Part shown: positions 5,580 through 36,546 of the stretch, piece after piece
How positions within the stretch are numbered: position 1 is the first letter of the stretch
Layout: every line of letters begins with the position of its first letter
Virus record (IMG/VR): IMGVR_UViG_2851955134_000009
Direction: 5' to 3' (one strand)
DNA from: a virus
Taxonomy: Duplodnaviria > Heunggongvirae > Uroviricota > Caudoviricetes
DNA: 64,000 nucleotides
Notes under the pieces: model-generated
Told to the model about the DNA's origin: nothing
Database searches by the model: none
What the model saw: the letters and a program-made list of their open reading frames with translations, nothing else
Program-made: the position numbers and the translations under genes

Positions 5580-6433
5580 GCACCATCCTGAAATGGGCGG
5601 GAAATAAAACCGCCATTATGCCAGAACTGAAAAAATACCTTCCTGCTGGCCCGCGACTGGTTGAACCTTTCGCGGGTTCCTGTGCTGTGATGATGGAAAC
5701 GGATTATCCCAGCTATCTGGTTGCGGATATTAATCCTGATTTAATCAACCTCTATAAAAAGGTTGCCGCTGATTGTGAATCGTTTATATCTCGCGCCAGA
5801 GTTTTATTTGAGATCGCAAACAGGGAGGTGGCTTATTACAACATAAGGCAGGAGTTTAACTGCTCAACTGAAATTACTGATTTCATGAAAGCGGTATATT
5901 TCCTGTATCTCAATCGTCACGGTTACCGTGGTTTATGTCGCTATAACAAGAGCGGGCATTTCAACATTCCCTACGGTAATTATAAAAATCCGTATTTCCC
6001 TGAAAAAGAACTTCGCACATTTGCAGAAAAAGCCCAGCGAGCAACGTTTATCTGCGCCAGCTTTGATGAAACGCTGGCGATGTTGAAGGCGGGAGATGTG
6101 GTGTATTGCGATCCGCCATATGACGGTACGTTTTCCGGCTATCACACTGATGGTTTCACTGAAGATGACCAGTATCACCTGGCATCCGTTCTTGAACATC
6201 GGTCATCAGAAGGACATCCGGTCATTGTTTCTAACAGTGACACATCCCTGATCCGTTCGCTGTATCGCAATTTTACTCACCACTATATCAAGGTAAAACG
6301 CAGCATCGGTGTGGCAGCTGGCGAGGGTAAATCAGCAACAGAAATCATTGCTGTTTCCGGGCCGCGCTGCTGGATGGGATTTGATTATTCGCGTGGCGTG
6401 GATAGTTCTGCCGTGTACGGAGTACGTGCATGA
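5576..6433 (+). CDS. dam: DNA N6-adenine methyltransferase (Dam family, orphan)
   Basis: ILKWAGNK N-terminal motif and DPPY catalytic motif ([10 protein letters not shown]); GGAGG RBS; no adjacent restriction gene. Confidence 0.85.
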
Positions 6434-8844
6434 GTCATGCCGATATGAACAACTGCTGCGGCTTTAACGAGGCTGCCGCAGCATTCTCATGGAACAGCCC
6501 GAAAAAGGCCATTAACCCTTATCTGGACCCGGCGGAAGTTGCGCCGGTTTCTACGCTTTCAAACCTGATCACTCTGTACGCTGCCGATAACGAGCAGGAA
6601 CAGTTGCGCCGCGAGGCACTGAGTGATCAGGTCTGGGAGCGTTATTTCTTTAATGAATCACGTGATCCTGTCCAGCGCGAAATGGAGCAGGATAAGCTCA
6701 TTAGCCGGGCAAAGCTGGCGCATGAGCAGCAGCGTTTTAATTCAGACATGGTCATTCTGGCGGACGTCAACGCCCAGCCTTCCCATATCAGCAAGCCGCT
6801 GATGCAACGTATTGAATACTTCAGCAGCCTGGGCAGGCCAAAGGCTTATTCCCGCTATTTACGTGAGACGATTAAGCCATGTCTGGAACGACTGGAGCAT
6901 GTACGCGACAGTCAGCTATCTGCATCTTTTCGCTTTATGGCAAGCAATGAAGGGCTGGACGGCCTGCTGATCCTGCCTGAAATGAGTCAGGATCAGGTGA
7001 AACGCCTGTCCACCCTGGTAGCTGCGCATATGAGTATGTGCCTTGATGCAGCTTGTGGTGATTTGTATGCCACCGATGACGTTAAGCCAGAAGAAATCCG
7101 CAAGACATGGGAAAAGGTGGCAGCGGAAACCCTGCGTCTGGATGTCATCCCACCTGCGTTTGAGCAACTCCGTCGGAAAAGAAACCGCCGTAAACCCGTG
7201 CCCTATGAACTCATTCCGGGTTCGCTGGCGCGTATGTTGTGCGCCGACTGGTGGTATCGGAAATTATGGAAGATGCGTTGCGAATGGCGGGAAGAGCAGT
7301 TGCGCGCTGTTTGCCTGGTCAGCAAAAAAGCATCTCCTTATGTCAGCTATGAAGCCGTGATGCATAAACGTGAGCAGCGCCGTAAGTCGCTGGAGTTTTT
7401 CCGTTCTCATGAACTGGTGAACGAAGACGGCGACACGCTGGACATGGAGGATGTGGTAAACGCCAGCAGCAGCAACCCTGCGCATCGCCGCAATGAGATG
7501 ATGGCCTGTGTTAAAGGTCTGGAGCTTATCGCGGAAATGCGCGGTGACTGCGCCGTTTTCTACACTATCACCTGTCCGTCGCGTTTCCATTCCACGCTAA
7601 ATAACGGCAGACCAAACCCGACCTGGACAAACGCGACGGTAAGACAAAGCAGCGATTATCTGGTCGGCATGTTTGCTGCATTTCGTAAGGCGATGCACAA
7701 AGCCGGGTTGCGCTGGTATGGCGTGCGGGTGGCTGAGCCGCATCATGATGGCACAGTTCACTGGCACCTGTTGTGTTTCATGCGCAAAAAAGACCGCCGT
7801 GCCATCACTGCATTACTGCGTAAGTTTGCCATCCGTGAAGACCGCGAGGAGCTGGGCAATAACACTGGGCCGCGCTTTAAGTCTGAGTTGATTAACCCGC
7901 GCAAAGGAACGCCGACAAGCTACATCGCGAAATATATCAGTAAGAACATTGACGGTCGTGGTCTGGCTGGCGAGATCAGCAAGGAAACGGGTAAATCTCT
8001 GCGTGATAACGCTGAATACGTGAATGCCTGGGCGTCTCTGCATCGTGTTCAGCAATTCCGCTTCTTTGGTATTCCGGGGCGTCAGGCTTACCGTGAACTT
8101 CGCTTGCTGGCTGGTCAGGCGGCAAGGCAACAGGGTGACAAAAAAGCAGGTGCGCCGGTACTGGATAACCCGCGTCTTGATGCCATTCTGGCTGCTGCTG
8201 ATGCTGGTTGTTTTGCCACCTACATCATGAAGCAGGGCGGCGTACTGGTTCCCCGTAAATATCACCTCATCAGAACCGCTTATGAAATCAACGAAGAGCC
8301 GACCGCCTATGGCGATCACGGCATTCGTATTTATGGCATCTGGTCACCCATTGCAGAGGGCAAGATCTGCACTCATGCAGTGAAGTGGAAAATGGTTCGT
8401 AAAGCCGTTGACGTTCAGGAGGCGGCAGCCGACCAGGGCGCTTGCGCCCCTTGGACTCGTGGCAATAACTGTCCCCTTGCTGAAAATTTGAACCAACAAG
8501 GGAAAGACAAATCAGCTGATGGGGATACCAGGACGGACATTACCCGCATGGATGACAAGGAGTTGCACGATTACCTGCACAGTATGAGCAAAAAAGAGCG
8601 CCGGGAACTGGCTGCAAGGTTACGCCTGGTGAAACCGAAACGGCGTAAAGACTACAAACAGCGAATTACAGACCATCAGCGACAGCAGCTCGTCTATGAA
8701 CTGAAGTCCAGAGGATTTAATGGCAGCGAGAAAGAGGTCGATTTACTCCTTCGCGGCGGCAGTATTCCGTCAGGAGCAGGCCTGCGTATCTTCTATCGGA
8801 ACCAGCGTTTGCAGGAAGATGATAAGTGGCGAAACCTGTATTAA
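6430..8844 (+). CDS. A: Replication initiation endonuclease (P2 gpA family, rolling-circle)
   Basis: 804 aa; active-site tyrosine region [15 protein letters not shown]; ATGA overlap with dam. Confidence 0.85.
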
Positions 8845-9196: not shown

Positions 9197-9430
9197 ATGC
9201 GCATTGAAATAATGATCGATAAAGAGCAGAAGATTAGCCAGTCTACCTTGGACGCCCTTGAATCCGAGCTTTACCGCAATCTGCGCCCCCTGTATCCCAA
9301 AACGGTAATTCGCATCCGCAAAGGTAGCTCTAACGGTGTGGAACTGACCGGACTGCAACTGGACGAAGAAAGAAAACAAGTGATGAAGATTATGCAGAAG
9401 GTGTGGGAAGACGACAGCTGGCTGCATTAA
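9197..9430 (+). CDS. DinI-like SOS-response modulator
   Basis: 77 aa, MRIEIMIDKE...VWEDDSWLH matches the DinI pattern (MRIEV...W.ES..W); GAGGTG RBS. Confidence 0.7.
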   Translation: MRIEIMIDKEQKISQSTLDALESELYRNLRPLYPKTVIRIRKGSSNGVELTGLQLDEERKQVMKIMQKVWEDDSWLH

Positions 9431-9589: not shown

Positions 9590-10015
9590 CTACTTAATTG
9601 AGTCCAGTAACAAGTTACAGTTACTCTCATTGTAGAGAGAACGAGCAATTAGTGTTACCTGCTTTCCATTCATTCCCGGCTTATCCCATAACACAGCTTC
9701 TTGCGACGCCACAAATTCAGCATAATCAATTATGCGTTGTTCGTGATCTGGTTCCTCATAGCCAAAGTATGAGAGCGCATCGTTGTAAGCGTGGTAAGCT
9801 GCTTTCTGTAATATCTTGATATCGGCTGTAGGTACTTGCTCCGTGTAGCTAGGATCTAATTGTGTGCTACTGCCATAGAATGCACATGAAAGGTAAGATA
9901 TTGATTTCTGTTGAGCTTTAGTTCCTTTCTCATAGTTTTTAGCTGTTACCGCCTGAACAGGGACGCTAACAAAGCTTGCAACCAGAATTAAAATTAATAC
10001 GTAAAAGCTTTTCAT
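9590..10015 (-). CDS. Secreted protein of unknown function (cargo)
   Basis: 141 aa with N-terminal signal peptide (MKSFYVLILILVASFVSVPVQA); low GC; GAGGT RBS. Confidence 0.6.
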   Translation of the reverse strand: MKSFYVLILILVASFVSVPVQAVTAKNYEKGTKAQQKSISYLSCAFYGSSTQLDPSYTEQVPTADIKILQKAAYHAYNDALSYFGYEEPDHEQRIIDYAEFVASQEAVLWDKPGMNGKQVTLIARSLYNESNCNLLLDSIK

Positions 10016-10288
10016 TTTGACCTCAGCCGAAACGTTAGAGAGACTATCGAAATTTGTAAAACCCGTGGCGATTCAGTTTGAGATCCTCCCCCTTACATGA
10101 TTTTTAATCAAATATATGCTTTTGTAAGCATACCTGTTAACCGAATTATTTATTTTTAGAGATCTTCCGACATACTGATTATGCCCGCTGAGGAGTTCAC
10201 CTTGCGTAAAGTCCGATTCGCTTTACTCGTCTGTGCATGTCTATGCTGCATGAGATTGCATGATCGTTTGAGGATCGTTTTTGCTAAG

Positions 10289-10312
10289 GCCCGCCAGAAC
10301 TGGCGGGCTTTT
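10289..10312 (+). terminator. Rho-independent terminator
   Basis: GCCCGCC-AGAACT-GGCGGGC hairpin followed by TTTT. Confidence 0.6.
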
Positions 10313-10357
10313 GCGTAGATCATGCTCCTGCATGAAAACCACTACATAAAGCGGGCA

Positions 10358-10376
10358 GGCGTGGCGGGGATACGAG
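10358..10376. other. Candidate cos (cohesive end) site of the P2-like phage
   Basis: GGCGTGGCGGGGA matches the start of the P2/186 19-nt cos sequence as recalled (GGCG[A/T]GGCGGGGAAAGCA.); lies between replication and head genes as expected. Confidence 0.4.
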
Positions 10377-10462
10377 CGCGCGTATTAGGTTTTATTTGAG
10401 AGCTTGTTAAATATGATGTTTCACAATTAGAATTGTCCGTAAATCATTCTGTTGGAGGCATT

Positions 10463-10645
10463 ATGGAATACTTAAGCGAAATCATTAGTTTTTTGGCAGG
10501 GGCGGGTATCAGTTGGGCTATTACTTTCAATGTGTATAATTACAAAGTAAAGCAAATTTGTATGAACCAAAGTTCTCCCATTCAAAATGGAAATACAGTG
10601 ACAAACGGAAGCATTGTCGGTAGAGATCAGACTAATTCTCACTAA
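10463..10645 (+). CDS. Small membrane protein, first gene of candidate cassette
   Basis: 60 aa from ATG with GGAGG RBS; one TM helix (IISFLAGAGISWAITF); C-terminal NGSIVGRDQTN motif repeated in the next ORF. Confidence 0.5.
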   Translation: MEYLSEIISFLAGAGISWAITFNVYNYKVKQICMNQSSPIQNGNTVTNGSIVGRDQTNSH

Positions 10646-10658
10646 GGGAGTGATTGGT

Positions 10659-11225
10659 GTGTTTAGTAAACAGGAGCAATCAGGTAATAGAGTAAGAAAT
10701 GGGAGTATTGTTGGAGGGAGTCAAACAAACCACATTACCAATATAGTTCGTAGTAGTAATCGAACTTTAGAGCGTTTGTACCAAAAGTTCTCTCAAGAAG
10801 ATGGAACTATGGGGGGGCAGGATTTTTGTGATAAGTTAAAGCACTATTTAGCCTCGGATACCAATCCAGATATAAGAGATTTAGCTACAAAGCTAACTGA
10901 TAGTGATAGAACTGAATTAATTTACTTTGCAACTGCTCTTAAAGAGCAAGCCCTCAAGGCGATAATGAAGTGCCAATCTTCCAAAACCGCACAAGAAATA
11001 TATGCGTTTATTCTTGATAAAATTCATGCTGATTTTATGCTCAAAATTACACCTCTTATTCAGAAGGATGAGGACCGAGTAATTGTTGATGAAAAAATTT
11101 CATTGGTATTAGAAAATATTAGTGAAATGTTGGGCGATAATTTGTTAAACTTATCCGAAAAGGATCTTTTGGGACTGTTGTATTTTTTAGGCGGAAATTG
11201 TTATATAAGGTGGGATAAATGTTAG
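10659..11225 (+). CDS. Hypothetical protein, candidate cassette component
   Basis: About 188 aa from GTG at 10659 (GTG at 10650 also possible); low GC; N-terminal NGSIVGGSQTN repeat; ends overlapping next start. Confidence 0.55.
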   Translation: MFSKQEQSGNRVRNGSIVGGSQTNHITNIVRSSNRTLERLYQKFSQEDGTMGGQDFCDKLKHYLASDTNPDIRDLATKLTDSDRTELIYFATALKEQALKAIMKCQSSKTAQEIYAFILDKIHADFMLKITPLIQKDEDRVIVDEKISLVLENISEMLGDNLLNLSEKDLLGLLYFLGGNCYIRWDKC

Positions 11226-11719
11226 TTTATCATCCAGCATATGATGCCTATCATTGTCTATTTAGAATGATGGCAATTATGGAAAATACAAATCGGCTTG
11301 AGATTGATAAGCTTAAAATATTGGATTTTTACATTTTATTTCCTGCGTTATTAAGTGAAGTGAAAATGCCGAGAGAATTTATTAAAATTAAAAAAACAGC
11401 AAAACTACATCATAATGAATATCATGATCCATTGAGTCCAAGGATTATTTTCAAGGAAATGCGTCAAATACAGGATGCAGCACTAAAATGTATGCTTGCG
11501 ACTGGTTATATTGATTCTGATGATTTCAGCAATGGTTTTGTCTCAAGAACAAATAAACAATTACCACTGAACCTAGCCTTAGAAATGGGCGTTTTTTTAG
11601 AGCGCAAAGAACCGTTTTCATCTTTCATTACACAAAAGATGGCTAAATTTGATCTGACTGGACCTGATGGATTGAAGGCTAGAACTAAACTTATGGAGTA
11701 TAGATATGACACTTATTAA
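11219..11719 (+). CDS. Hypothetical protein, candidate cassette component
   Basis: 166 aa; ATG with AAGGTGGG RBS; 7-nt overlap with upstream gene and 14-nt overlap with the ATPase gene. Confidence 0.6.
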   Translation: MLVYHPAYDAYHCLFRMMAIMENTNRLEIDKLKILDFYILFPALLSEVKMPREFIKIKKTAKLHHNEYHDPLSPRIIFKEMRQIQDAALKCMLATGYIDSDDFSNGFVSRTNKQLPLNLALEMGVFLERKEPFSSFITQKMAKFDLTGPDGLKARTKLMEYRYDTY

Positions 11720-13610
11720 GCCTACTCTTATTGTAACCAGATTAACAGTTTTTCAACACGGACATCGTGCATTTGATTGTGAATTCCACAAAGGTGTTAA
11801 CATTATTCGTGGGCGAAATAGTTCTGGTAAAACTACAATAATGGATATGCTGGCATTTTCATTGGGAGCTGAAAATATCAGGTGGAAACCACAGGCTTTG
11901 AAATGCACTAGAACAATCGTTGAAGTGCTTCTCAATAATGAGAAAGCATGCTTTAAACGAGAGATATCTATTGAGCAAATGCGACCTCTTTATATTTATT
12001 GGGGAGCGATGGATAAGGCTTTGAATGCTGGGGAACACGAATGGGATTTATACCCATTCAAGAGAACTGAGAGTAAAATTAGCTTCACCCAAGCTATTTT
12101 CAATGCATTATCAATGCCCTTGGCACAAGGTGCTGGTTCTTCTAATTTGACATTGCATCAGATTTTACGTGTCTTGTATGCAGATCAGCCGTCGTTACAT
12201 AGTCCAATTTTTCGATTTGACAGATTTGATAATGCTCTTACCCGTGAGACGGTAGGTGGATACTTATGTGGTGTTTATAATGATGAGTTGTACAATGCAC
12301 AACTTTCTTTAAGAGATGTTGAGACCGAACTAACAAAGAAAGTTACTGAATTAAAAAGTATCTTTACTGTATTAGGTAGATCTGGACAGGCTCCAGATTT
12401 ACAAGGTATTGATGAGAAAATAAAGCATCTAAATAAATTGAGAGCTATTGAGAATGTAAAACTAACAAATAGAGCTATTATAACTAATGAAGAAGGGGCT
12501 GATTCTGAAAAACGAATGGGTACTATCAGGGAGGAACTCAATGAAGCTAAAAGGAAATTATCTTCCCTAAAAGATAAAATCCAATCTTTGGATTTTGAAA
12601 TTTCAGATTCTGATATGTTTATATCAGAATTAAATGAGCGGCTAAAAAACTTAGAACAGTCTCGAGAAACGCGTGCTATATTTGATAGTATGAATTTTGA
12701 TTTTTGCCCTAGTTGTCTTTCCAAAATAGATAAGGCTCATAATGATCATGTTTGTCATCTATGTAAAGTGGAACAATTAGATGATAAAGCTGAAAATCAG
12801 TTATTAAGAATGAAAAATGAATTAACTCTTCAAATCAAAGAATCTCTTCAATTAATGGATAGAAGAAAAGAAGAGTTGGTAAGATTAAAGCGAGATGTTC
12901 CTTTAGCTGAGAGTGAATTAAAAAGGCTTGAACAGGATTATTTCAAAGAGTCACACTATTGGTCTTCACCGCAAGAGTTAGCTGTAGGTAAAATATATAG
13001 GGAAATTGGACGGCTTGATGAAGAAATAAAAAGAGCTTATGAAGATAAGAAGCTTATTGTTGTTATTAATGAACTTCAAGAGCGTCGCGATGAACTTCAG
13101 GCGGAAAAAAATAGACTTGATGATCTTATTGAACTTTATGAAGAAAAAGAGGAAGTTCTTAAAGATAAAATTTATGCTTCAGTGAGCTCAATAGCACAAG
13201 AGCTTTTACAAGAAGATTTGCCTTTGCAAAAAGAGTTTATGTCTCCTGAAAGTGTGGAGTTTAGTTTTACTGATAATAGCGTTTATGTGAATGGTAGTAA
13301 GAACTTTTCTGAAAGTTCAGCTGTAGTATTAAGGCATATATTCCATTTGGCACTACTTTCAGCAAGTATAGAGAACCACTCAATGCGACTTCCAAGATTT
13401 ATGATGTTAGATGGGATCGACGATGGTGGAATGGAAAAAGAACGGAGTCACAATTTACAGGAAATAATAATTGATGAGTGCTCACGTTATGAACATGATT
13501 ATCAGTTGATATTTGCAACATCTGAAATAAATCCCAAATACAGTGAGAGTGAATATATTGTTGGTGAGTATTATTCGCCAGATAATTATTCATTGAAAAT
13601 AATTGAGTAA
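11706..13610 (+). CDS. SMC/Rad50-like ABC ATPase with long coiled-coil insert and CxxC...CxxC hook-like motif
   Basis: 634 aa; Walker A GRNSSGKTT near N-terminus, about 300-aa K/E-rich coiled coil with CPSC-x10-CHLC, C-terminal Walker-B-like FMMLDGIDD; no TOPRIM or nuclease domain visible. Confidence 0.75.
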   Translation: MTLIKPTLIVTRLTVFQHGHRAFDCEFHKGVNIIRGRNSSGKTTIMDMLAFSLGAENIRWKPQALKCTRTIVEVLLNNEKACFKREISIEQMRPLYIYWGAMDKALNAGEHEWDLYPFKRTESKISFTQAIFNALSMPLAQGAGSSNLTLHQILRVLYADQPSLHSPIFRFDRFDNALTRETVGGYLCGVYNDELYNAQLSLRDVETELTKKVTELKSIFTVLGRSGQAPDLQGIDEKIKHLNKLRAIENVKLTNRAIITNEEGADSEKRMGTIREELNEAKRKLSSLKDKIQSLDFEISDSDMFISELNERLKNLEQSRETRAIFDSMNFDFCPSCLSKIDKAHNDHVCHLCKVEQLDDKAENQLLRMKNELTLQIKESLQLMDRRKEELVRLKRDVPLAESELKRLEQDYFKESHYWSSPQELAVGKIYREIGRLDEEIKRAYEDKKLIVVINELQERRDELQAEKNRLDDLIELYEEKEEVLKDKIYASVSSIAQELLQEDLPLQKEFMSPESVEFSFTDNSVYVNGSKNFSESSAVVLRHIFHLALLSASIENHSMRLPRFMMLDGIDDGGMEKERSHNLQEIIIDECSRYEHDYQLIFATSEINPKYSESEYIVGEYYSPDNYSLKIIE

Positions 13611-13614
13611 TTGT

Positions 13615-13645
13615 ATATGTGGCTGCTATTTTTGTAGCCACATAT
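13615..13645. terminator. Perfect 10-bp hairpin between convergent ATPase and Q genes (possible bidirectional terminator)
   Basis: ATATGTGGCT-(11 nt loop)-AGCCACATAT immediately after the ATPase stop; no clean U-tract. Confidence 0.35.
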
Positions 13646-13675
13646 AAATTACTGTCTGAACTTTATTGTTTTTGT

Positions 13676-14704
13676 TCAAAGTACGTATGGTCTAAACCTA
13701 ATTATTTCTATTTCAAGCCAGTCGTTTAATTGATCAAATCTTTTCTGCATGGGCACCAATTCATTGCGCATAAATACCTTACTAGCCTTCTCCACATCCC
13801 CAAACCCCCCAACATTATTCGGCAAAATTCCCATCATCTGAGGCGGTACGCGGTGTGCAGCCATCATGTCGTCCCGGCTCACGTTCTTGATGTTCAGAAA
13901 TTCATCTTTCGCTGCGACTTCTGACAACGGGATAATCTGAAGTCCGTCCTTTTTGCCGTTAGGCGAGTACATAAACAGATTGCGGAAGTTGCCTGGACCT
14001 TTGGCGCTTTTCATCGCGTTGCGGAGGTTGTTCACATCCTCCTGATTCTGCGCGGCGTCGGTCATGTACATGATGAAGCCTGCATGACTACCGTTGATGT
14101 AATACTTACGGCGGAACAGCGTGGCGGATTCGTTGAGCAGGGCGGATGGAATGGCAGAAAGATAGCCGGGCAGGCCGTAGATCTCCTGGTTGATGTCCGG
14201 TTCCATCAGATGAAAAATGCTGCCTTTCGTGAACTGATACGGCTGGGTTGTCATACCGTATTGCACAAACCAGTAGGTATCCAGGTCTAACCCGCGTCGG
14301 GTGTATTTTGCCAGCGCAGGCTCAAGGGCGATAACTTCACCGAATCGGTTCGTGCGTTTCTCCAGGTAGGCGTTACCAAATACCAGATAGTCCTGCACAA
14401 AACGCGAAAAAGCCTGTTGGCTGAGCAGCGGATGAGGGATATAGGTACTGGTCAGAATGTTGCACTTTACTGCAATCGGGGAACTGTGATGCACGGCAGC
14501 GCGGAAGGTGCGCGCCAGTCCGTCAAAGCTGACGGGAGGCTCATACCAGCGATCTGTCTGAACACATTCCACATAGTCCAGCAGTTCGCGGCGGTCAAGT
14601 ACTGGAACGGGATCACCGAAGCTGAATGCTTCGGCTGAAGTCTGGTTTTTATGCTGGATCTGATTCGTCGCCGCAGCGCGGTTTTTCTTACTCTTTCCCA
14701 TCAA
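13676..14704 (-). CDS. Q: Portal protein (P2 gpQ-like)
   Basis: 342 aa; size and position match P2 Q next to the terminase ATPase. Confidence 0.85.
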   Translation of the reverse strand: MMGKSKKNRAAATNQIQHKNQTSAEAFSFGDPVPVLDRRELLDYVECVQTDRWYEPPVSFDGLARTFRAAVHHSSPIAVKCNILTSTYIPHPLLSQQAFSRFVQDYLVFGNAYLEKRTNRFGEVIALEPALAKYTRRGLDLDTYWFVQYGMTTQPYQFTKGSIFHLMEPDINQEIYGLPGYLSAIPSALLNESATLFRRKYYINGSHAGFIMYMTDAAQNQEDVNNLRNAMKSAKGPGNFRNLFMYSPNGKKDGLQIIPLSEVAAKDEFLNIKNVSRDDMMAAHRVPPQMMGILPNNVGGFGDVEKASKVFMRNELVPMQKRFDQLNDWLEIEIIRFRPYVL

Positions 14705-16467
14705 AAAATCTCCACAATATTGCTGGTATTGGCGGACTCGCCCTGCAGCGGTTCGTTAAACAGTGCGTGCATTGTTGCCCAGGCCAGATCGGCGTGGCTG
14801 GCTTCTTCGCTGCGGCTGGCTTCATAGGTTGGGCGGTTGCCACTGGCGGTGGTGGCACGACGGATTGCCATGAATGACTGCGCAATGTCGGTGTGCCCGG
14901 CGTCAAACTCCAGACGGCGGTGGCTGATAATGTCGTAGGCCTTGAGTACCAGGGCATTTTTAACGTTGGGGTTGTAGACAAACTCCCGGACGGCAGGAAA
15001 GAACGCTTTCACGTTCTCGTAAACTCCGTGACCGACACCTGTCGAGTCGATACCGATATAGGTCACGTTGTACTGTTCGGTCAGTTTTTTGATGGCGTCA
15101 GCCTGGGCGCGGAAGTCCATCCCGCGCCACTGGTGACGCTCAAGAATGCGAAACTTACCGCCTGGCACGGCTGGCGGTGCCACCACCACGCATCCGGCGC
15201 TGTCGCCGTTCTGCGTACCTTTTGCCGGGTCATAACCGATCCACACTTCTCGCCAGCCAAACGGGCGCAGGGCCAGTGCATGAAAGTCGGTCCAGACTTC
15301 CCAACTGTCCACCATGCATGCCTGCAGCTCGCTGAGCGGAAATACGGACGCGAGATCGTCCACGAATTCACACATCAGCAGGTTCTGGTATTCGTCCGGG
15401 CTGTATTCCATGCGCAACTGGTCAAGGTCGAACAGGTTACAGCCGCCGCGCACCGCATCTTCCACGGTGACTATCTGGCGGTATTGCCCGTCTGCACACA
15501 GCAGGCCTGGAGCCAGATTGCTGTGGGACAGGTCGATGTCCACCTTGTCGGCTTTATTGCGCCCACGGTTGAATAGCGCACCGGACCAGAACGGATAAGC
15601 ACTGTGTGTCAGGCTGGATGGCGTGGAAAAATAGGTTTGTCGCCATTTTTTGTGAATAGCCATACCGGAAGCCACTTTGCGCAGCTCCTGGAATTTCGGT
15701 ATCCAGAAATATTCATCCAGATACAGGTTGCCGTGGTAACTCTGGGCCGTGCGGGCATTGGTGCCGAGGAAATACAGTGTGGCCCCGTTGGGAAGCACCA
15801 TCGGATCGCCTTTCAGCTCCACTTCCACTTCTTTGGCGAAGTCGATGATGTACTGCTTAAAGACGTGGGCCTGTGCCTTGCTGGCGGAAAGGAAAATCTG
15901 GTTACGTCCGGTAAGCAGAGCGTCAATCAGGGCTTCACGGGCAAAGTAAAAGGTCGCGCCGATCTGGCGTGACTTCAGCAGGTTGCGGATGCGGTTGGTT
16001 TTTCCGGCTTCCCACCAGTGGCGCTGGTAGTTGAACATGGAGGAATGGAAAATTTCTTCCAGCTTCTCAATCTGTTCATCGGTGAAAACATTCTTTTCAG
16101 GCTGACGGCGTGGGCCTTTGTTGCGGTTGGCGACGTTAGGGTTTAAGTCGGCTTCGTTGCCGCCATTGTTAAACTTGCCGATCCGCGCGTGGCGCTCCGA
16201 CTGGCGCGCCAGCAGGTCAATTTCTTTAAAGTCTTTCCCTTCTTTGTGCTCCTTCATAATGAGCTGGCAGTAGCGTGCGGCGGTAGTGAGCTGCATCTGA
16301 TCCAGCGGCCCATAGTCACCCCACTTGTCGCGTTTTTTCCAGCTGTGAACGGTTGCAACTTTCTCGCCCAGCATTTCAGCAATGCGGGCGACGCGGTATC
16401 CCTGAAAGTACAGCAGCATGGCCTGCCGACGGGGATCGAGATCTGCGGGTGTCAGTGTGGTGTTCAT
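14701..16467 (-). CDS. P: Terminase large (ATPase) subunit (P2 gpP-like)
   Basis: 588 aa; overlaps Q by 4 nt; divergent from O-N-M as in P2. Confidence 0.85.
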   Translation of the reverse strand: MNTTLTPADLDPRRQAMLLYFQGYRVARIAEMLGEKVATVHSWKKRDKWGDYGPLDQMQLTTAARYCQLIMKEHKEGKDFKEIDLLARQSERHARIGKFNNGGNEADLNPNVANRNKGPRRQPEKNVFTDEQIEKLEEIFHSSMFNYQRHWWEAGKTNRIRNLLKSRQIGATFYFAREALIDALLTGRNQIFLSASKAQAHVFKQYIIDFAKEVEVELKGDPMVLPNGATLYFLGTNARTAQSYHGNLYLDEYFWIPKFQELRKVASGMAIHKKWRQTYFSTPSSLTHSAYPFWSGALFNRGRNKADKVDIDLSHSNLAPGLLCADGQYRQIVTVEDAVRGGCNLFDLDQLRMEYSPDEYQNLLMCEFVDDLASVFPLSELQACMVDSWEVWTDFHALALRPFGWREVWIGYDPAKGTQNGDSAGCVVVAPPAVPGGKFRILERHQWRGMDFRAQADAIKKLTEQYNVTYIGIDSTGVGHGVYENVKAFFPAVREFVYNPNVKNALVLKAYDIISHRRLEFDAGHTDIAQSFMAIRRATTASGNRPTYEASRSEEASHADLAWATMHALFNEPLQGESANTSNIVEIF

Positions 16468-18521: not shown

Positions 18522-19172
18522 ATGAACCTGAGTCCCGCACGGCAGCATCGCCTGCGCGTTCAGGCTGAACAGGCCGCCCGCGAGGGCGGCAGTGTTCGCC
18601 ACGCGTCGGGCTATGACCTGATGTTGCTGCAACTGGCGGAAGATCGCCGCCGTCTCAAGGGCGTTCAGTCCACGGTCAAAAAAGCGGAAATCAAAGTGGA
18701 GCTGCTGCCGAAGTACGCCGCCTGGGCGGAGGGTGTCCTGGCTGCCGGAGGCACTCAACAGGATGACGTGCTGATGTACGTGATGCTGTGGCGCATTGAT
18801 GCCGGAGATTATGCCGGGGCGCTGGAGATCGGGCGTCATGCCCTGCGTCATGGCTGGGTGATGCCGCTGGGTAACCGCAACGTGCAGACCGTGCTGGCAG
18901 AGGAAATGGCAGACGCAGCGCAGAGCGCAATGCTTGCCGCCACCGGCTTTGATGCCGATCTGTTACTGCAGACACTGGAACTAACAGACGGTCTGGATAT
19001 GCCGGACCAGTCACGGGCGCGTCTGCATAAAGCGATTGGCGCTGTCCTGAGTGAAAGCAATCCGGCTTCCGCCCTTAATCATCTCAACCATGCGTTACAG
19101 CTCGATCCCCGCTGTGGCGTGAAAAAAGACAAACAGCAGCTGGAGCGCAGACTGCGCAATGACAGCCGCTGA
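18522..19172 (+). CDS. M: Terminase small (endonuclease) subunit (P2 gpM-like)
   Basis: 216 aa, P2 order N-M-L. Confidence 0.75.
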   Translation: MNLSPARQHRLRVQAEQAAREGGSVRHASGYDLMLLQLAEDRRRLKGVQSTVKKAEIKVELLPKYAAWAEGVLAAGGTQQDDVLMYVMLWRIDAGDYAGALEIGRHALRHGWVMPLGNRNVQTVLAEEMADAAQSAMLAATGFDADLLLQTLELTDGLDMPDQSRARLHKAIGAVLSESNPASALNHLNHALQLDPRCGVKKDKQQLERRLRNDSR

Positions 19173-21075: not shown

Positions 21076-21154
21076 CGGTGATCTGAATGCGTTGCTGGAT
21101 GAAACGGAGGCCGCCTGGGCGGTCTGTGCAGACAAAGTGGACATGATTATTTGA
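20918..21154 (+). CDS. lysC: o-spanin lipoprotein (Rz1-like, LysC), 3' end replaced by Mu-like insertion
   Basis: Lipobox LTLSGC; 78 aa; stop codon TGA is the first 3 nt of the inserted element; reconstructed empty site gives a 96-codon ORF. Confidence 0.7.
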   Translation: MRTRIYATGLILLCLLTLSGCGNVRHSPEVQLTVSGCPRVTPCRLEQAAPRTNGDLNALLDETEAAWAVCADKVDMII

Positions 21155-21200
21155 TGCGCCGCGCGATAAATGCGCTCTATCTTGTGCGATAAATGGCATC
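21152..21200. repeat. Right-end terminal repeat region (transposase binding sites)
   Basis: TGATGCGCCGCGCGATAAATGCG...GTGCGATAAATGG, two GATAAAT motifs 22 bp apart; resembles the Mu R-end as recalled. Confidence 0.7.
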
Positions 21201-21229
21201 CACGCGGCGTTTCATTATTTGAAAAAGAA

Positions 21230-21802
21230 TTACATTTCAGGTTCCGTTATGACAGTCCCAACAGGGTGATAGCGGTAGATCGTTGACAGTCCAATATCAT
21301 AGATAATTGCCAGCCGCTTTCTGTCATACCCTTTCTGGAGCAATCTTGCGATCTGCTCATGCTGCTCCTTCGTCAGTTTCGGGCGACGTCCTCCAACTCT
21401 CCCTTGTGCTCGCGCAGCAGCCAGTCCTGCCAGCGTGCGCTCAACTATCAGTTCACGCTCCATTTCTGCCAGTGCACCCATCATATGAAAAAAGAACCTT
21501 CCCATCGGAGTGCTGGTATCGATTGAATCCGTCAGACTGCGAAAATTGACACCTTTTGCGCGTAGCTCTTCTGTGAGAGCAATGAGGTGTTTCATTCTTC
21601 TACCCAACCGATCCAGCTTCCAGACCACCAATGTATCCCCTCTTTTAAGGCACTTTAAAGCGCGTTTCAGGCCTGGTCGTTCCGACTTGGTTCCGCTCAT
21701 TTTGTCCTCAAAAATCTGTTCACATCCTGCGCACATTAATGCATTGCGTTGCAAATCTGTGTTTTGGTCATTTGTTGACACACGTATGTAGCCAATCAGC
21801 AT
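21230..21802 (-). CDS. gin: Serine DNA invertase (Gin/Hin/Cin family)
   Basis: 190 aa from ATG at 21802 (MLIGYIRVSTNDQ...); resolvase catalytic N-terminus and C-terminal HTH; adjacent to invertible tail-fibre segment. Confidence 0.9.
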   Translation of the reverse strand: MLIGYIRVSTNDQNTDLQRNALMCAGCEQIFEDKMSGTKSERPGLKRALKCLKRGDTLVVWKLDRLGRRMKHLIALTEELRAKGVNFRSLTDSIDTSTPMGRFFFHMMGALAEMERELIVERTLAGLAAARAQGRVGGRRPKLTKEQHEQIARLLQKGYDRKRLAIIYDIGLSTIYRYHPVGTVITEPEM

Positions 21803-21915
21803 TAAAAATACTCCCTTTTGAGTGGTTAAAGTACTGAGATAATGTGAGGAGGATTTGAGAGATAAACGTTGGTTTGGGGGAAGGCTCTGCATTGCCTGTT
21901 GGTGTACCGGTTCCA

Positions 21916-21948
21916 TGGCCCACCGCCACACCGCCAGCAGGCTGGTTA
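21916..21948. repeat. Inverted repeat, left crossover site of invertible segment
   Basis: 33-bp TGGCCCACCGCCACACCGCCAGCAGGCTGGTTA, perfect inverted copy at 23394..23426. Confidence 0.8.
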
Positions 21949-22335
21949 CAGTGCAACGGAGCTACGTTCACCAAAGAACAATATCCTGTTCTGGCCAGAG
22001 TCTACCCGACCCTCCGTCTTCCCGATTTGCGCGGTGAGTTTATCCGTGGATGGGACGGTGGTCGCAAGGTTGATACCGGGCGTGCGCTACTTTCATTTCA
22101 GGAAGGGACTATCGTATCCGGTTTTGATGATAATGATACCGGAGATATCAGTTCGCTCGGCTCTACACAATACGGATTTGGTGACGCTTTAACCTCTAAT
22201 CAACTGGGGGTCATAAATGGCAAAAAGTGGATATTTGATGCATCCTCTAAAGGTGCACAAAGATATGACTGGTGGGCTTATGTATCAGCTCGCCCCCGCA
22301 ATATCGCATTTAACTATATCGTGAGGGCGGCGTGA
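21949..22335 (+). other. Silent alternative tail-fibre C-terminal cassette (Sv'-like)
   Basis: Shares the GEGSALPVGVPVPWPTATPPAGWL junction and the C-terminal NYIVRA with the expressed fibre; no own ATG (track start is TTG inside the repeat). Confidence 0.7.
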
Positions 22336-22341
22336 TACCGT

Positions 22342-22956
22342 TCAGCCGGCAAGCGCCAGTGGCGCTTCCGGCCAGCTGATTTCAGGTGCCTTGCTGATAT
22401 CCAGTGCGTTCAGCTCGTCGATATAATCCAGCACGGCGTTCAGTTTTGCCGTTTCTTCTGGTTTCAGACTGCGACCTGCCCGCAGTTTGAGGTTGATGAG
22501 GTCGATGGACTTCATCGCCTGATCCACCCGTTCCTGGCGTTGCAGTCTGGCAACCTCCAGCTCTGCGGCTCGCTGCCGTTCAGTATCGGTTACCCACGCC
22601 TCACCGTTCCAGGTATCCCATGGCGTGGCCGGCTGTTTTGTGGTGGTGTCCGCCGGGTAATCACCCGGCTGGGTAATCTGAACGGGAGTACCGTTCTCCG
22701 TGCTGTATACCGTCTCGCCGCGGTGATCAGGCACATGTTCCCACCCGTTCAGCGTGGCAGTCCGGCAAACCACGTAACCCGAAATTGCCTCCGGCGGTGC
22801 ATCGGCGCACGAATGTGCCGGAGTACCCACCCCAAGGGCGAGATACTCCACAGAGGATGAGGTGTATTCCCGGGTTTCCTCGTCATAGTGATATACAGTG
22901 ATATCGCCCGCTACAGTGGCGATACCGTTTTCATCCAGAACTGCAGTGTTACTCAT
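22342..22956 (-). CDS. Tail fibre assembly protein (Mu U-like chaperone)
   Basis: 204 aa, immediately downstream of the fibre gene, inside the invertible segment. Confidence 0.8.
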   Translation of the reverse strand: MSNTAVLDENGIATVAGDITVYHYDEETREYTSSSVEYLALGVGTPAHSCADAPPEAISGYVVCRTATLNGWEHVPDHRGETVYSTENGTPVQITQPGDYPADTTTKQPATPWDTWNGEAWVTDTERQRAAELEVARLQRQERVDQAMKSIDLINLKLRAGRSLKPEETAKLNAVLDYIDELNALDISKAPEISWPEAPLALAG

Positions 22957-24725
22957 TAAACTGCCCTCACAATGTAATTAAGTGCAATGCTACGGGGTCT
23001 GACAGTGATACCCTTCGCATACCCGCTTCTGATAGAGGTCAGAATAGTAGCCTGCATACCATTGTCTGACATTGCCACGACAGGATCGCTGAATGTTGTC
23101 CCGTCCGGCATTTTAAAGCTGCCCTCACGAAGGTCTGTAATGGAATCTTCATTGTTGAATCCCATGCCGACTATCCCCGAGGTTCCCGTAGTGTCCTGGT
23201 TATAATAATCCAGCATTGCTGTTCTTAACAGCGTTGCCCCTTGTGCGGACAGCAACTTACGTCCTGTATCAACTTTGCGCCCGTCGTCCCATCCACGGAT
23301 AAACTCACCGCGCAAATCGGGAAGACGGAGGGTCGGGTAGGCTCTGGCCAGAACAGGATATTGTTCTTTTGTAAAGGCGCGCCCGTCGCACTTTAACCAG
23401 CCTGCTGGCGGTGTGGCGGTGGGCCACGGAACAGGCACACCAACGGGTAGCGCCGAGCCTTCTCCTAAACCAAGGTAATTGAGGACATCTTTTATACTGC
23501 CCTTAGCGATAATAGCGCGACCAATAGCTGTAAGGGTTGCCAGCGCTGCGCGGTCTGCTCCGGTAAAATAAGGCAACCGATCTGCTGCAGTGGCAAGTCC
23601 TGCCAGAGCAGTGAGCGTGGCATCTGCCGGTTGTTTTCCGTTTGCCAGATCGTATGCAGCCTTGACCGCTTTCGGTGTGGCGGCCAGTATTTCAGACGTG
23701 CTGTTGATGGCACTGCTCAGTTGTACGGTGCCTTTTGCCGTCAGCGAGGCCGCAGGCACTCCCGTTATCTGACTCCACGGGTGAGTGTGGCTGGCAGGCG
23801 CCTTGCCGGCTGCCAGGTCGTATGCAGCCTTGACCGCTTTCGGTGTGGCGGCCAGCGTTTCAGACGTGCTGTTGATGGCACTGCTCAGTTGTACGATCCC
23901 TTTACGGGTCGTTGTTGCATCCTGGGCTGTGTATTTTCCCCGGGCCAGATCATACGCGATTTTCACAGCCTTCGGCGTGGCAGCCTCAGTTTCTGATTGA
24001 CTGTCCGTGGCGCTGCTCAGTTGTACGGTGCCTTTTGCCGTCAGTGAAGCCGCAGGCACTCCCGTTATCTGACTCCACGGGTGAGTGTGGCTGGCAGGCG
24101 CCTTGCCGGCTGCCAGGTCGTATGCAGCCTTGACCGCTTTCGGTGTGGCGGCCAGCGTTTCAGACGTGCTGTTGATGGCACTGCTCAGTTGTACGATCCC
24201 TTTACGGGTCGTTGTTGCATCCTGGGCTGTGTATTTTCCCCGGGCCAGATCATACGCGATTTTCACAGCCTTCGGCGTGGCAGCCTCAGTTTCTGATTGA
24301 CTGTCCGTGGCGCTGCTCAGTTGTACGGTGCCTTTTGCCGTCAGTGAAGCCGCAGGCACTCCCGTTATCTGACTCCACGGGTGAGTGTGGCTGGCAGGCG
24401 CCTTGCCGGCTGCCAGGTCGTATGCAGCCTTGACCGCTTTTGGTGTGGCGGCCAGCGTTTCAGAGGTGCTGTTGGTGGCACTGCTCAGTTGGGTGAACCC
24501 CTTAGCTGTCAGTGTCGCGTCCGGGTGGTTACGGGAACGTACGTGTTCAGCCAGTGACTGTGCGGCTTCCTCCGTTTTCTTCTTCAGCCATTTCGTCCTG
24601 TTTGCCAGTTGCCGGGGGGCTCGATTTGATATCCCGTCTGCACCACCCAGAACCGGATCTGATGTCTCCAGTTGATAGATATTTTCTTCCCACTTTTCTG
24701 TTTCATTCAGGTTTCCCATAATCAA
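22956..24725 (-). CDS. Tail fibre protein (Mu S-like) with repetitive shaft
   Basis: 589 aa; about 100-aa repeats (GTVQLSSA..S.SET.AATPKAVK.AYDLA); C-terminal 145 aa lies inside the invertible segment. Confidence 0.85.
   Translation of the reverse strand: MIMGNLNETEKWEENIYQLETSDPVLGGADGISNRAPRQLANRTKWLKKKTEEAAQSLAEHVRSRNHPDATLTAKGFTQLSSATNSTSETLAATPKAVKAAYDLAAGKAPASHTHPWSQITGVPAASLTAKGTVQLSSATDSQSETEAATPKAVKIAYDLARGKYTAQDATTTRKGIVQLSSAINSTSETLAATPKAVKAAYDLAAGKAPASHTHPWSQITGVPAASLTAKGTVQLSSATDSQSETEAATPKAVKIAYDLARGKYTAQDATTTRKGIVQLSSAINSTSETLAATPKAVKAAYDLAAGKAPASHTHPWSQITGVPAASLTAKGTVQLSSAINSTSEILAATPKAVKAAYDLANGKQPADATLTALAGLATAADRLPYFTGADRAALATLTAIGRAIIAKGSIKDVLNYLGLGEGSALPVGVPVPWPTATPPAGWLKCDGRAFTKEQYPVLARAYPTLRLPDLRGEFIRGWDDGRKVDTGRKLLSAQGATLLRTAMLDYYNQDTTGTSGIVGMGFNNEDSITDLREGSFKMPDGTTFSDPVVAMSDNGMQATILTSIRSGYAKGITVRPRSIALNYIVRAV
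23394..23426. repeat. Inverted repeat, right crossover site of invertible segment
   Basis: Reverse complement of 21916..21948, located inside the fibre gene at the constant/variable junction. Confidence 0.8.
23640..24480. repeat. 300-bp tandem repeats within the tail-fibre gene
   Basis: 23761..24060 and 24061..24360 are identical, with diverged partial copies on both sides. Confidence 0.85.
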
Positions 24726-25312
24726 CTGCTCCCGTGGTTATAACTGCCATCATGGATGGCGGTATTGTTATAGCGAATGGCCACAGACTGATACTCCAGG
24801 CTGGCCAGATGGCAGCGGGCCGGTGCAAATGCAGCCAGCGTCTGACGCAGCATCGCGGCCTGATCGTTAGTAATGGGCTGTTTCAGAATAACGCGATAAA
24901 CTGCCCAGGCGGCTGCATCTCCATGAACAAACAGTCCGTTATAGCTGCGATTGCCGTCGTAACTGAGACGACCTGTGCCTTCAATCAGATCCACTTCACC
25001 AAAGCCAAAACGGCGGATAACTTCCCGGATTGACCACGGCGTCCCTTTATACCGGTGCAGTTCGATGGCTGCTTTTATAAGCATGCGGCGAACATCGTCC
25101 GATTCCGCCAGCTCCCAGCCATCGCCAGACAGTGAGAACTGCTCGCCCAGCCATGGCAGCGCGGAACTGTCGACGATATCGACGAGAAAGACCATCAGTA
25201 CGCTCAGGTCGATGTTATCCAGCCGTCCTGCCAGTCTTCCCAGCGTCCTGAGACTGATATCACCCTCAAGCGGTGGCGGGAGTTGTAATGGCTCAGTCAT
25301 CAGACACTCCAC
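24722..25312 (-). CDS. Baseplate/tail protein (P2 gpI-like, Mu gp48 position)
   Basis: 196 aa, between J-like baseplate gene and tail fibre. Confidence 0.7.
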   Translation of the reverse strand: MECLMTEPLQLPPPLEGDISLRTLGRLAGRLDNIDLSVLMVFLVDIVDSSALPWLGEQFSLSGDGWELAESDDVRRMLIKAAIELHRYKGTPWSIREVIRRFGFGEVDLIEGTGRLSYDGNRSYNGLFVHGDAAAWAVYRVILKQPITNDQAAMLRQTLAAFAPARCHLASLEYQSVAIRYNNTAIHDGSYNHGSS

Positions 25313-26396
25313 TCATGTTAAGAGTGATTGCCGTACAGTTTGCCCATTCGTTTTCTGCCACCACCCGCAGTGCCGGTGTCACCAGTTCAACCTGGTACAC
25401 CCCGGAAACGGACAATGCACTGATAATCTGGCTGGGGACAATATCACGCCCCAGCGTGGCGGCACGTGATGCCACCCAGTTCTGTATGGCGCTGTTAGCG
25501 GCATCTTTTACAGACCTGGCATCCTGATCACGATAGATCGTAATCCTGGCTTCAATGGTGTAATCCACCTTCACTGGTGTTTTAGCCCGCACTGTATCAG
25601 TGAGTGGCCTGACTTTCTCATCAGAGCAGAAACTCTCTACCAGCGTGAGAACACCGCCGTCCGGCAGACCGGTACTGAGCAGCGGATACAGATCTACGGT
25701 CCCGGGAACCGGGGAAAGCACAGCAACATCGACAATGTTGGGATGGGCCTGCATGGCATGAAAGCGGTATGCGCCACGGCTTCCGGCATTGGTGAATGAC
25801 TCCGGGGCCAGCCTGATACGCTCCCGGAGCCTGTCATCGTCTTCCTGTTCTGAACCGCCGGAACTGGCCGTCAGATTGCTCACCAGCAGGTCGACGTTAT
25901 CAATCTCATCGAGTAACTGACTGACCTGCGCAGGTTGCCAGCCGTTACCAGCGGTACCGGGTTCGGTACAGGTGGACGTGACATTGACCAGCAGCAATCC
26001 GGCCTTCAGTACCACATCTGTATCGGTGGCAAAAATAACGCTGTCGGAAGCGCTGACGCGGGTGCCTGCCGGGATCAGCACATCAATGGCCAGTGCCTCA
26101 TCTACGGAGAACTGGAGCGTGGTGGTGGCAGGCTGCGCGGCAAGACGGTATACACCGACCAGTTCACCGAGGTAATCAATCATCGGCTCACGGGCAAAGG
26201 CGACCAGATTCTGCTTTGCTGCCTCCTGTACCGCAACCCTGACCAGCATTTCGCGATAGGCCCACAGATCAATCAGCAGACGTTCTGCCTGTGCCGGGTA
26301 CAGCGTTTTGCCGGTATCCGCTTCATACTTCGCAATCATTTCTGCCGTGATTTTGTCGGCATCGCGTTCAATAAAATCGGGTTCTGTCAGCGCCAT
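25293..26396 (-). CDS. Baseplate protein J-like
   Basis: 367 aa in W-J-I order. Confidence 0.75.
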   Translation of the reverse strand: MALTEPDFIERDADKITAEMIAKYEADTGKTLYPAQAERLLIDLWAYREMLVRVAVQEAAKQNLVAFAREPMIDYLGELVGVYRLAAQPATTTLQFSVDEALAIDVLIPAGTRVSASDSVIFATDTDVVLKAGLLLVNVTSTCTEPGTAGNGWQPAQVSQLLDEIDNVDLLVSNLTASSGGSEQEDDDRLRERIRLAPESFTNAGSRGAYRFHAMQAHPNIVDVAVLSPVPGTVDLYPLLSTGLPDGGVLTLVESFCSDEKVRPLTDTVRAKTPVKVDYTIEARITIYRDQDARSVKDAANSAIQNWVASRAATLGRDIVPSQIISALSVSGVYQVELVTPALRVVAENEWANCTAITLNMSGVSDD

Positions 26397-26734
26397 AGCA
26401 GCTCCTGAGTCCGGGTCTGTCCGTCTGAGCCTTTCCAGCTCACCCGGAGCGTAAGATGTTCGCCGTCGACGGCGGGTTTAACTGACATAAGCTGGCAGCG
26501 GGGCTCCCAGCGCCGGATGGCATCGACGGATTCGCGCACCACATGCGGAATGGCCCGGTCTACAGGCCAGTCGATATAAAGATGCAGATTGCTGCCGAAC
26601 TCCGGGCGATGCGGGTCGCTGCCGCGGGGAGTCCGCAGGATAATTTGAATCGCCTGCCGGATATCATCCAGCCCCCGGACAATTTCGCCGGGAGCCTGCA
26701 GGGCTGGTTGCCAGAATACTGAGGTCGTTTTCAT
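26387..26734 (-). CDS. Baseplate wedge protein (GPW/gp25-like)
   Basis: 115 aa, conserved position between V-like and J-like. Confidence 0.7.
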   Translation of the reverse strand: MKTTSVFWQPALQAPGEIVRGLDDIRQAIQIILRTPRGSDPHRPEFGSNLHLYIDWPVDRAIPHVVRESVDAIRRWEPRCQLMSVKPAVDGEHLTLRVSWKGSDGQTRTQELLWR

Positions 26735-26788
26735 GGGGGCAGTATTGCCCCCGTGCGGGAACGCTGATATTAAAGGCGTTTAAGAAGC

Positions 26789-27385
26789 TCAGTGGGAGTG
26801 GTGGCTGGAGTTTTCGCCATCAGACAGCATACTGCCCGTGGCATGGGCATTCCCTTTAATCTCGATATTGCCATGGATGGTCGCGGTAACACCTTTACCA
26901 CCAGAACCCGCCATGCCTCCTTCGTAAATCAGCTTTCCCCTGACACGCAGATCTCCGGTAAGTTCGGTTTCCGGTGCGTCAATCGTGGCTTTCTGTGTTT
27001 TCAATACCACATCAGCACCACACTCAATGACAATATGCTCAATGCCGCCCCGGATGGTCAGAGTGTGCGTCTTCCGGTTGTAGCTGTACTCTGCACCATC
27101 AGCAAACCGGGTTCCCCGGATATTTTTGTCACTGAACGGTGGTTTATCGACGTCTGAATACACCGCGCCCAGAATAACACCATCCTCGCCGTTGGCATCG
27201 AGCAGCACCTCAACCTGCTCCCCCACGTCAGGGAGCCAGTAATCTTTGTTATCCTGGGTATTGCGCTGCAGCACGTTAAGCCAGTTTGTGCGCAGGTTAT
27301 CGCATTCAGGCAGACGAACGCGGGCCTGAACCCTGTCGGCATCAACGGCACTGACCGTACCGACCTGACGAGTGACACCAGTCAT
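26789..27385 (-). CDS. Baseplate spike/hub protein (gpV-like)
   Basis: 198 aa with Gly-rich C-terminus. Confidence 0.7.
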   Translation of the reverse strand: MTGVTRQVGTVSAVDADRVQARVRLPECDNLRTNWLNVLQRNTQDNKDYWLPDVGEQVEVLLDANGEDGVILGAVYSDVDKPPFSDKNIRGTRFADGAEYSYNRKTHTLTIRGGIEHIVIECGADVVLKTQKATIDAPETELTGDLRVRGKLIYEGGMAGSGGKGVTATIHGNIEIKGNAHATGSMLSDGENSSHHSH

Positions 27386-28536: not shown

Positions 28537-28739
28537 GGGGCAATATCCTCTTCTGTACGGGCTTCTTCAGCCTCAATCACCGGGATCAGTAACAACAGCC
28601 CGGAGGGCAGCACCGGCGTGATGGCCACGTGCGGATTGGCGGCAATAATCCGGGGATAGCCCAGCGGGTCACCGTAGTACTGCCATGCCAGCGAATCCCA
28701 GCGCTCTCCGTCACGGGTAACATGTTCAAGAAACATCAC
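28524..28739 (-). CDS. Tail protein X-like
   Basis: 71 aa; WDSLAWQYYGDP...PSGLLLLIP pattern resembles gpX family. Confidence 0.6.
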   Translation of the reverse strand: MMFLEHVTRDGERWDSLAWQYYGDPLGYPRIIAANPHVAITPVLPSGLLLLIPVIEAEEARTEEDIAPWLR

Positions 28740-32571: not shown

Positions 32572-32646
32572 AGTGGTTAACCTCCGGGGAAGGTGAAAAG
32601 ACGTGAGGGGATAACGCAGAACAGCCGCTACTGGCGGCTGTCTGTA

Positions 32647-32904: not shown

Positions 32905-33064
32905 TCAGCGGTTCGTCCCAGTCTGCCGGGTTTTTGCTGATTTTGCGCACCTGCTTCAGGTCTTTTACCGTCAGGCGTTTCAGTTCAACCAGCTCAATTC
33001 TGGTGCCTGCAGCAGTGGTGAAGGGATAAGACAATTTAAAAGTATCGGATGGGGTCTGTGACAT
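32729..33064 (-). CDS. Tail assembly chaperone (gpE/G-like)
   Basis: 111 aa, upstream of tape measure; G5 run 2 codons before stop. Confidence 0.75.
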   Translation of the reverse strand: MSQTPSDTFKLSYPFTTAAGTRIELVELKRLTVKDLKQVRKISKNPADWDEPLIARSTGLLPEDLDNMDLADYLQLQKRFQLITGMGESDKGADAGAGAAGEMVPVSAGGD

Positions 33065-33443: not shown

Positions 33444-33445
33444 CG

Positions 33446-36545: not shown

Positions 36546-36546
36546 C

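Follow-up and report, generated by a model that had tools for sequence, protein, structure and literature searches.

A predicted P2-family cos region divides the A–Q interval of a 186/Fels-2-type prophage into two cargo slots

The locus studied here raises the question whether a short GC-rich sequence lying behind a hairpin is the cos site of a P2-like prophage and, if so, how the cargo genes are distributed around it. The DNA analysed, hereafter the window, is a stretch of 64,000 nucleotides from a virus of the class Caudoviricetes (IMG/VR record IMGVR_UViG_2851955134_000009). Direct reading of the sequence placed the 13-mer GGCGTGGCGGGGA at 10358..10370, with a gap of 45 bases between it and the T-run of the hairpin, in agreement with the coordinates and the 45-bp spacing of the two elements in the initial annotation. 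The elements of the region are as follows.

10233..10382, no strand assigned: conserved cos block, made up of a 125-bp right-end part, the 19-nt cohesive sequence and a further 6 nt
10234..10261, plus strand: TGCAT motifs (starts at 10234, 10247 and 10257), candidate terminase-recognition repeats, putatively bound by the enzyme; also present in the P2, 186 and P4 right-end flanks
10289..10312, plus strand: GC-rich hairpin with a 9-bp stem and an AA loop, followed by TTTT
10328..10382, plus strand: equivalent of the 55-bp P2/P4 cos core, from the core identities
10358..10376, plus strand: predicted 19-nt cohesive end GGCGTGGCGGGGATACGAG, from the P2/186 register, the identity to the SEN8 19-mer and the survey
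10357/10358 on the top strand and 10376/10377 on the bottom strand: predicted nicks, from the register with annotated P2 and 186 cos

By itself, the 13-mer is weak evidence for cos. Its exact sequence is present in a single copy in the 64-kb window, and when up to two mismatches were allowed it was found 4 times against 1.87 expected, which is no enrichment; the case for cos therefore rests on context, and it is the flanks and the surroundings that settle its identity. For this comparison, the circular end junctions of P2, 186 and P4 were rebuilt from their records, cos being annotated in those of P2 and 186. The window was found to be in register with the end junctions of all three phages at the annotated cleavage points. 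Across the 55-base core (10328..10382), the counterpart of the P2/P4 cos core of Ziermann & Calendar 1990 as it is described in the citing passages of PMC3931495, PMC5694545 and PMC9594776, the window agreed with 186 at 44/55 positions, with P4 at 43/55, with P2 at 41/55 and with SEN8 at 53/55, while P2 and P4 agreed with each other at 51/55. The in-register alignment to the P2 and 186 cos regions bears out the earlier call of a P2/186-type cos. The junctions of the window and of 186 read as follows.

Window: flank ...CTGCATGAAAACCACTACATAAAGCGGGCA, cohesive 19-mer GGCGTGGCGGGGATACGAG, next bases CGCGCG
186: flank ...CTGCATTAAAACCGACCCATAAAGTGGGCA, cohesive 19-mer GGCGTGGCGGGGAAAGCAT, next bases TGCGCG

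Common to 186, P2, P4 and the window are a cohesive end that opens with GGCG(A/T)GGCGGGGA, a flank of the form TGCATTAAAACC...AAGCGGGC before it, (C/T)GCGCG after it and TGCAT repeats further upstream. Compared with 186, the first bases of the cohesive 19-mer were identical (13/13) and the overall agreement was 15/19, with four unlike bases within positions 14-19. These positions read TACGAG in the window, AAGCAT in 186 and AAGCAC in P2 and P4. The full 19-mer corresponds to ggcgtggcggggatacgag, which was reported as the cos of the Salmonella phage SEN8, a Fels-2/RE-2010-like phage (PMC5427200). The SEN8 record opens with this 19-mer under the name 'putative cos site' and ends at the base equivalent to 10357 of the window; the site was identified during annotation, and a literature search on the sequence for end mapping of the ATACGAG cos type gave annotation-level statements only. 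With the SEN8/Felsduovirus type of cos (Fels-2, RE-2010), the window thus shares an identical SEN8 19-mer and a right-end 125-bp flank that is 89-93% identical, but it differs from SEN8 and RE-2010 in its cargo, which is here an ABC-3C/Lamassu-like cassette, and in its host, which is here E. coli.

The candidate site lies between A and Q of a genome encoding P2-type terminase subunits. The genes concerned, together with those between A and cos, are listed below.

6430..8844, plus strand: gene A, left border of the A-cos slot (Pfam Phage_GPA, E = 1.2e-127)
9197..9430, plus strand: DinI-like gene, homologue of 186 tum, in the A-cos slot (Pfam DinI, E = 1.3e-22; RefSeq)
9590..10015, minus strand: ORF of 141 aa whose N-terminus resembles a signal peptide, in the A-cos (right-end) slot (ORF list)
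13676..14704, minus strand: portal gene Q, right border of the cos-Q slot (Pfam Phage_portal; RefSeq)
14701..16467, minus strand: terminase large subunit P (ORF list and RefSeq annotation of PK8568)
18522..19172: terminase small subunit M (ORF list and RefSeq annotation of PK8568)

Identification of cos by homology is strong, and we consider it very probable that 10233..10382 is the P2-family cos region of a 186/Fels-2-type prophage. That the GC-rich 13-mer arose by chance and is no packaging site would fit the non-significant count of near-matches in the window (4 against 1.87 expected with up to two mismatches); it is hardly conceivable, since about 150 bp between A and Q align in register with the cos of 186, P4, P2 and SEN8, and the other near-match, at 48101, is without cos-type flanks. 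The latter sequence, AGCGTGGCGGGGA (48101..48113, minus strand, one mismatch), had been considered as a second cos-like 13-mer; it is located in an ORF of the BcepMu-like prophage described below, its flanks are not of the cos type, and it was set aside as a chance occurrence. The cos of a P4-like satellite was also considered and was ruled out by the flanking genes, which are P2-type A, Q and P.

If packaging proceeds as in P2, 186 and P4, the terminase encoded by M and P would recognise the cos block on circular phage DNA and would nick the two strands 19 nt apart, at 10357/10358 on the top and 10376/10377 on the bottom strand. The virion DNA would then bear the 5' extension GGCGTGGCGGGGATACGAG. 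If the site is cos, the gene for the secreted protein (9590..10015, minus strand) would be located at the right virion end and the ABC-ATPase cassette (10463..13610) at the left end, from cos to Q; this consequence had been drawn before and it holds.

The extent of the packaging signal was estimated from relatives. An IMG/VR pattern scan with GGGCRGGCGWGGCGGGGA returned at least 120 loci; an exact 18-nt match was required, the sample is not random, and the fractions given from it are indicative. The 19-mer of the window was the commonest variant among the listed sequences of this survey (43/121). In 43 distinct listed loci of the same cos type, column conservation of at least 90% covered approximately 10233..10382 and dropped sharply at both edges, on the left-end side 6 nt past the 19-mer, that is, after +25. 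BLAST matches in 85 phage records stopped at about 10382-10390, the listed matches in E. coli genomes stopped at about 10382-10388, and the cos block was 100% identical over 183-184 nt in several other genomes. In addition to the three TGCAT motifs in the right-end flank, a fourth is present at 10329, within the core. GATC (Dam) sites are found three times in the block, starting at 10262, 10273 and 10318 (window 10262..10322), and GATCGTTT occurs there as a direct repeat, with copies at 10262 and 10273.

On the left-end side, homology is likewise lost in P4 after +26. The flank from +26 to +190, which is partly common to cargo-free relatives, P2 and 186, is missing in the window: in P2 and 186, Q follows within about 190 bp past cos, whereas in the window 3.3 kb of cargo lies between them and the P2/186 left-end flank is entirely gone. 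An accessory packaging element could therefore be absent from the window. Judged by analogy, the absence of the P2/186-type left flank in P4 and in SEN8, which was sequenced as a phage and carries cargo directly after cos, argues that this flank is dispensable. These observations suggest that the conserved packaging signal in this lineage is about 150 bp long with just 25 bp on the left-end side, which is relevant to the design of P2/P4-type cosmids. Since conservation reaches 125 bp into the right-end side and no more than 25 bp into the left-end side, cargo would be free to occupy the DNA from 10383 up to Q.

Within the block, the hairpin (GCCCGCCAG-AA-CTGGCGGGC) occupies 10289..10308, and TTTT comes next, at 10309..10312. 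The predicted folding energy of its region was -27.6 kcal/mol, whereas shuffled sequences gave -15.05 on average (z = -5.1); 0/200 of them were as stable. The T-run is short, with 4 T, or 5 T within 8 bases, and the hairpin was not among the calls of a consensus terminator scan. The initial annotation had described it as a clean terminator. A strong hairpin with a short T-run is indeed present, yet as an element of the cos block: a stem with at least 7/9 pairs was found at -69..-50 from the cut in 40/43 listed loci of the lineage, whatever stood upstream, and a T-rich tail was found in 38 of them. The nearest plus-strand gene upstream stops at 9430, about 860 bp away. The hairpin is better regarded as a fixed element of this conserved block than as a terminator that serves the upstream cargo.

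With regard to its role, we consider it most likely that the hairpin would act as an insulator, keeping rightward transcripts of the A-cos slot from reaching the cut site. It may instead serve mainly in packaging, as a recognition or bending element to which a host factor or the small terminase subunit would bind, and not mainly as a terminator; we regard this as possible but less likely. Its position within the conserved block and away from any gene end would suit such a role, as would the missing call in the terminator scan and the occurrence of GC hairpins without a T-run at the same offset (-70..-49) in 186 (CGCCAG-AG-CTGGCG) and P4 (ACCGCGCC-ATTCCC-GGCGCGGT); in many other loci, a motif of the type CCAG..CTGGCGCGG is common at this offset. 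The T-rich tail in 38/43 listed lineage loci and the very stable fold, on the other hand, are what an intrinsic terminator needs, and a comparable hairpin was not found in P2 at the same offset, which indicates that the element is not universally required for packaging.

A further question is whether the predicted cos is still in use in this genome. The P2-like prophage of E. coli PK8568 is complete, the window is colinear with it to 21151 and again from 58747, and the 8.5 kb flanking cos is 99.7% identical to this intact prophage. Between the two colinear parts, a 37.6-kb BcepMu-like transposable prophage is inserted in lysC (21152..58746). The insertion cuts off R, S and the tail genes from the remaining late operon, and the cos-to-cos unit that includes it is about 70 kb, roughly twice the 33.6-kb genome of P2. 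The P2-like prophage copy of the window is probably unable to make virions. Since the insertion splits the prophage, the cos copy, which is probably intact in sequence, is probably no longer used. One may go further and regard cos as a dead relic of a defective prophage, a site that in this genome is no longer cut and has escaped selection, and we lean towards this view because the insertion in the late region interrupts lysC, separates R, S and the tail genes and about doubles the cos-to-cos length. Against it, the cos block is identical or nearly identical in many genomes, and its flanking 8.5 kb match the intact PK8568 prophage at 99.7%. Given this near-identity to intact relatives, any inactivation would be recent and the sequence would still be that of a working cos. 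The loss of function at this copy therefore qualifies the identification of the P2-family cos region and does not replace it.

Several features of the inserted prophage were recorded separately. It encodes a Mu-type portal, a DDE transposase (50841..52610), an AAA ATPase (52594..53787) and a Gin-like invertase (21230..21931). Its transposase region shares 98% identity with Escherichia phage PhiKM and 69% with BcepMu, its ends are of the form TG...CA, and the target duplication is ATTAT(T).

With cos placed at 10358..10376, the interval from A to Q would consist of two slots: an A-cos slot holding the DinI-like gene and the gene for the secreted protein, and a cos-Q slot holding the ABC-3C/Lamassu-like cassette. 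Similar genes are known from the A-cos side of related phages, where 186 tum is annotated as DinI-like and P2 old and tin are A-cos slot genes. The 141-aa ORF (9590..10015) matched no Pfam or PADLOC family. Just upstream of it, a promoter-like site at 10140..10111 was the best in the scan, with 10/12 matches. Among the listed relatives, A and cos were 486 to 4177 bp apart, and cos and Q 182 to 4432 bp; each slot is variable in length, with the cos block fixed between them, which upholds the earlier two-slot description.

The position of the cassette between cos and Q had been called unusual, on the ground that Q normally abuts cos. That Q adjoins cos is true of P2 and 186 (at most about 190 bp), but the distance exceeded 400 bp in 48 of the 89 P2-like loci with a recognisable Q among those listed. 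For the portal lineage of the window, that is, listed loci with a Q sharing at least 75% identity with that of the window, the corresponding count was 25/29. The claim of an unusual location is thus contradicted by these loci as well as by the literature, in which the hotspot is already described. In SEN8, the cos-Q cargo is a hypothetical gene and an HNH endonuclease gene; RE-2010 carries an AIPR abortive-infection gene annotated 'prevents superinfection', and 500465-1 a TIR-domain gene. From the cos-Q slots of the 48 listed loci, 72 distinct cargo ORFs were collected, including DRT/retron reverse transcriptases, AbiEii-like ATPases, a restriction-modification pair and ABC-3C (MC3/CTD7), SieB, AbiC, TIR, SEFIR and RES proteins.

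The position 'between cosL and the gpQ homolog' is named as a foreign-gene hotspot in a passage of PMC5694545 that cites Dodd & Egan 1996 and Nakayama 1999. In E. coli, 1,650 gene arrangements were described for the gpA-gpQ interval, a defence hotspot lying 'adjacent to the cos site' (Rousset et al. 2022, PMC9122126), and the gpA-gpQ defence hotspot of P2-like phages is also treated in NAR 2026, PMC13586616. The window resembles this gpA-gpQ or cosL-Q hotspot in its variable, defence-rich cargo from A to Q beside cos, SMC-type systems being among the listed cargo. The feature is therefore an ordinary instance of an already known and common arrangement. Recent surveys treat A-Q as one interval, whereas in the window and the surveyed loci the cos block physically splits it in two, which refines the description of the A-Q hotspot and does not amount to a new kind of locus. 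As the gpA-gpQ defence hotspot is physically two slots around the cos block, a sharper mining for defence systems becomes possible. The practical value is otherwise modest, consisting in predicted virion ends for this prophage type that can be used in annotation and in the choice of genome start points, and no new biological question is opened.

The cargo showed a strong orientation bias. In the cos-Q slots of the listed IMG/VR loci (L005-L124), 67 of the 72 distinct ORFs of at least 100 aa point away from cos toward Q, and the cassette of the window and P4 gop are likewise transcribed away from cos; the ORFs of the A-cos slots were split 77 to 35. The cos-Q slot starts at exactly +26 in each lineage examined. 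One could imagine from this that the 150-bp cos block is a fixed anchor between two independently exchanging slots and that cargo capture is tied to the cohesive end; for example, DNA could be captured at the left end of the linear phage DNA, as opposed to being acquired by ordinary recombination and selection. The start at +26, the 67/72 orientation and the presence of the same ABC-3C cassette on either side of cos in different prophages would fit such a process, which we nevertheless consider improbable.

The cassette in the cos-Q slot consists of four genes, followed by a repeat at its border with Q.

10463..10645, plus strand: ORF of 60 aa, hydrophobic at its N-terminus and probably encoding a membrane protein, likely the first cassette gene (ORF list; without annotation in RefSeq)
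10659..11225, plus strand: ABC-3C component with CTD9, 188 aa from a GTG start (Pfam CTD9, E = 2.5e-30; RefSeq, strain PK8568; homologues of a consistent 183-208 aa)
11219..11719, plus strand: ABC-3C middle component 5, LmuC-like (Pfam MC5, E = 1.6e-57; weak PADLOC LmuC, E = 8.7e-4)
11706..13610, plus strand: SMC/ABC-type ATPase, LmuB-like (PADLOC LmuB, E = 9.8e-43; weak Pfam AAA_15, SMC_N and AAA_23)
13607..13652, no strand assigned: AT-rich inverted repeat between the convergent stops of the ATPase gene and Q, at the place of the Q terminator of cargo-free relatives (sequence read directly)

From these domain matches, the four genes were identified as an ABC-3C/Lamassu-like cassette, a putative defence system. 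As in Lamassu and ABC-3C systems, an SMC-like ABC ATPase, a middle component and a third component bearing a CTD are encoded in one operon. In contrast to those systems, the CTD9 protein of the window has just about 75 residues before the CTD, and upstream of its gene lies a conserved 60-aa hydrophobic ORF; Pfam and PADLOC recognised no effector domain in either the CTD9 protein or this small upstream ORF. The 60-aa ORF may be the missing effector of the system. Its C-terminus, NGSIVGRDQTN, is echoed by the N-terminus of the CTD9 protein, NGSIVGGSQTN. From overlapping ORFs of 70 and 203 aa that share the motif NGSIVG.xQTN, it had been suspected that the CTD9 gene was split by a frameshift or truncation; this was ruled out, because 38 CTD9 homologues are uniformly about 171-208 aa long and in Serratia the small ORF is conserved as a gene of its own.

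A homologous four-gene cassette was found in a Serratia P2-like prophage (L133 3798..6985, cos at 7127) in the order 63-aa ORF (L133 3798..3989), CTD9 protein, MC5 and ABC ATPase. There it occupies the A-cos slot and Q adjoins cos, whereas in the window it lies between cos and Q, so that the same cassette is found in either slot. The GC content of the window cassette is 34%, compared with 53-54% in A and Q-P. The cassette was detected at this site in 3/5426 complete E. coli genomes; 1273 genomes were matched, and the listed matches cover the cos block alone. Homology to cargo-free relatives resumes at 13716, inside Q, and the cassette has replaced the DNA from +26 to Q, the usual Q terminator and the last 13 or so codons of Q.
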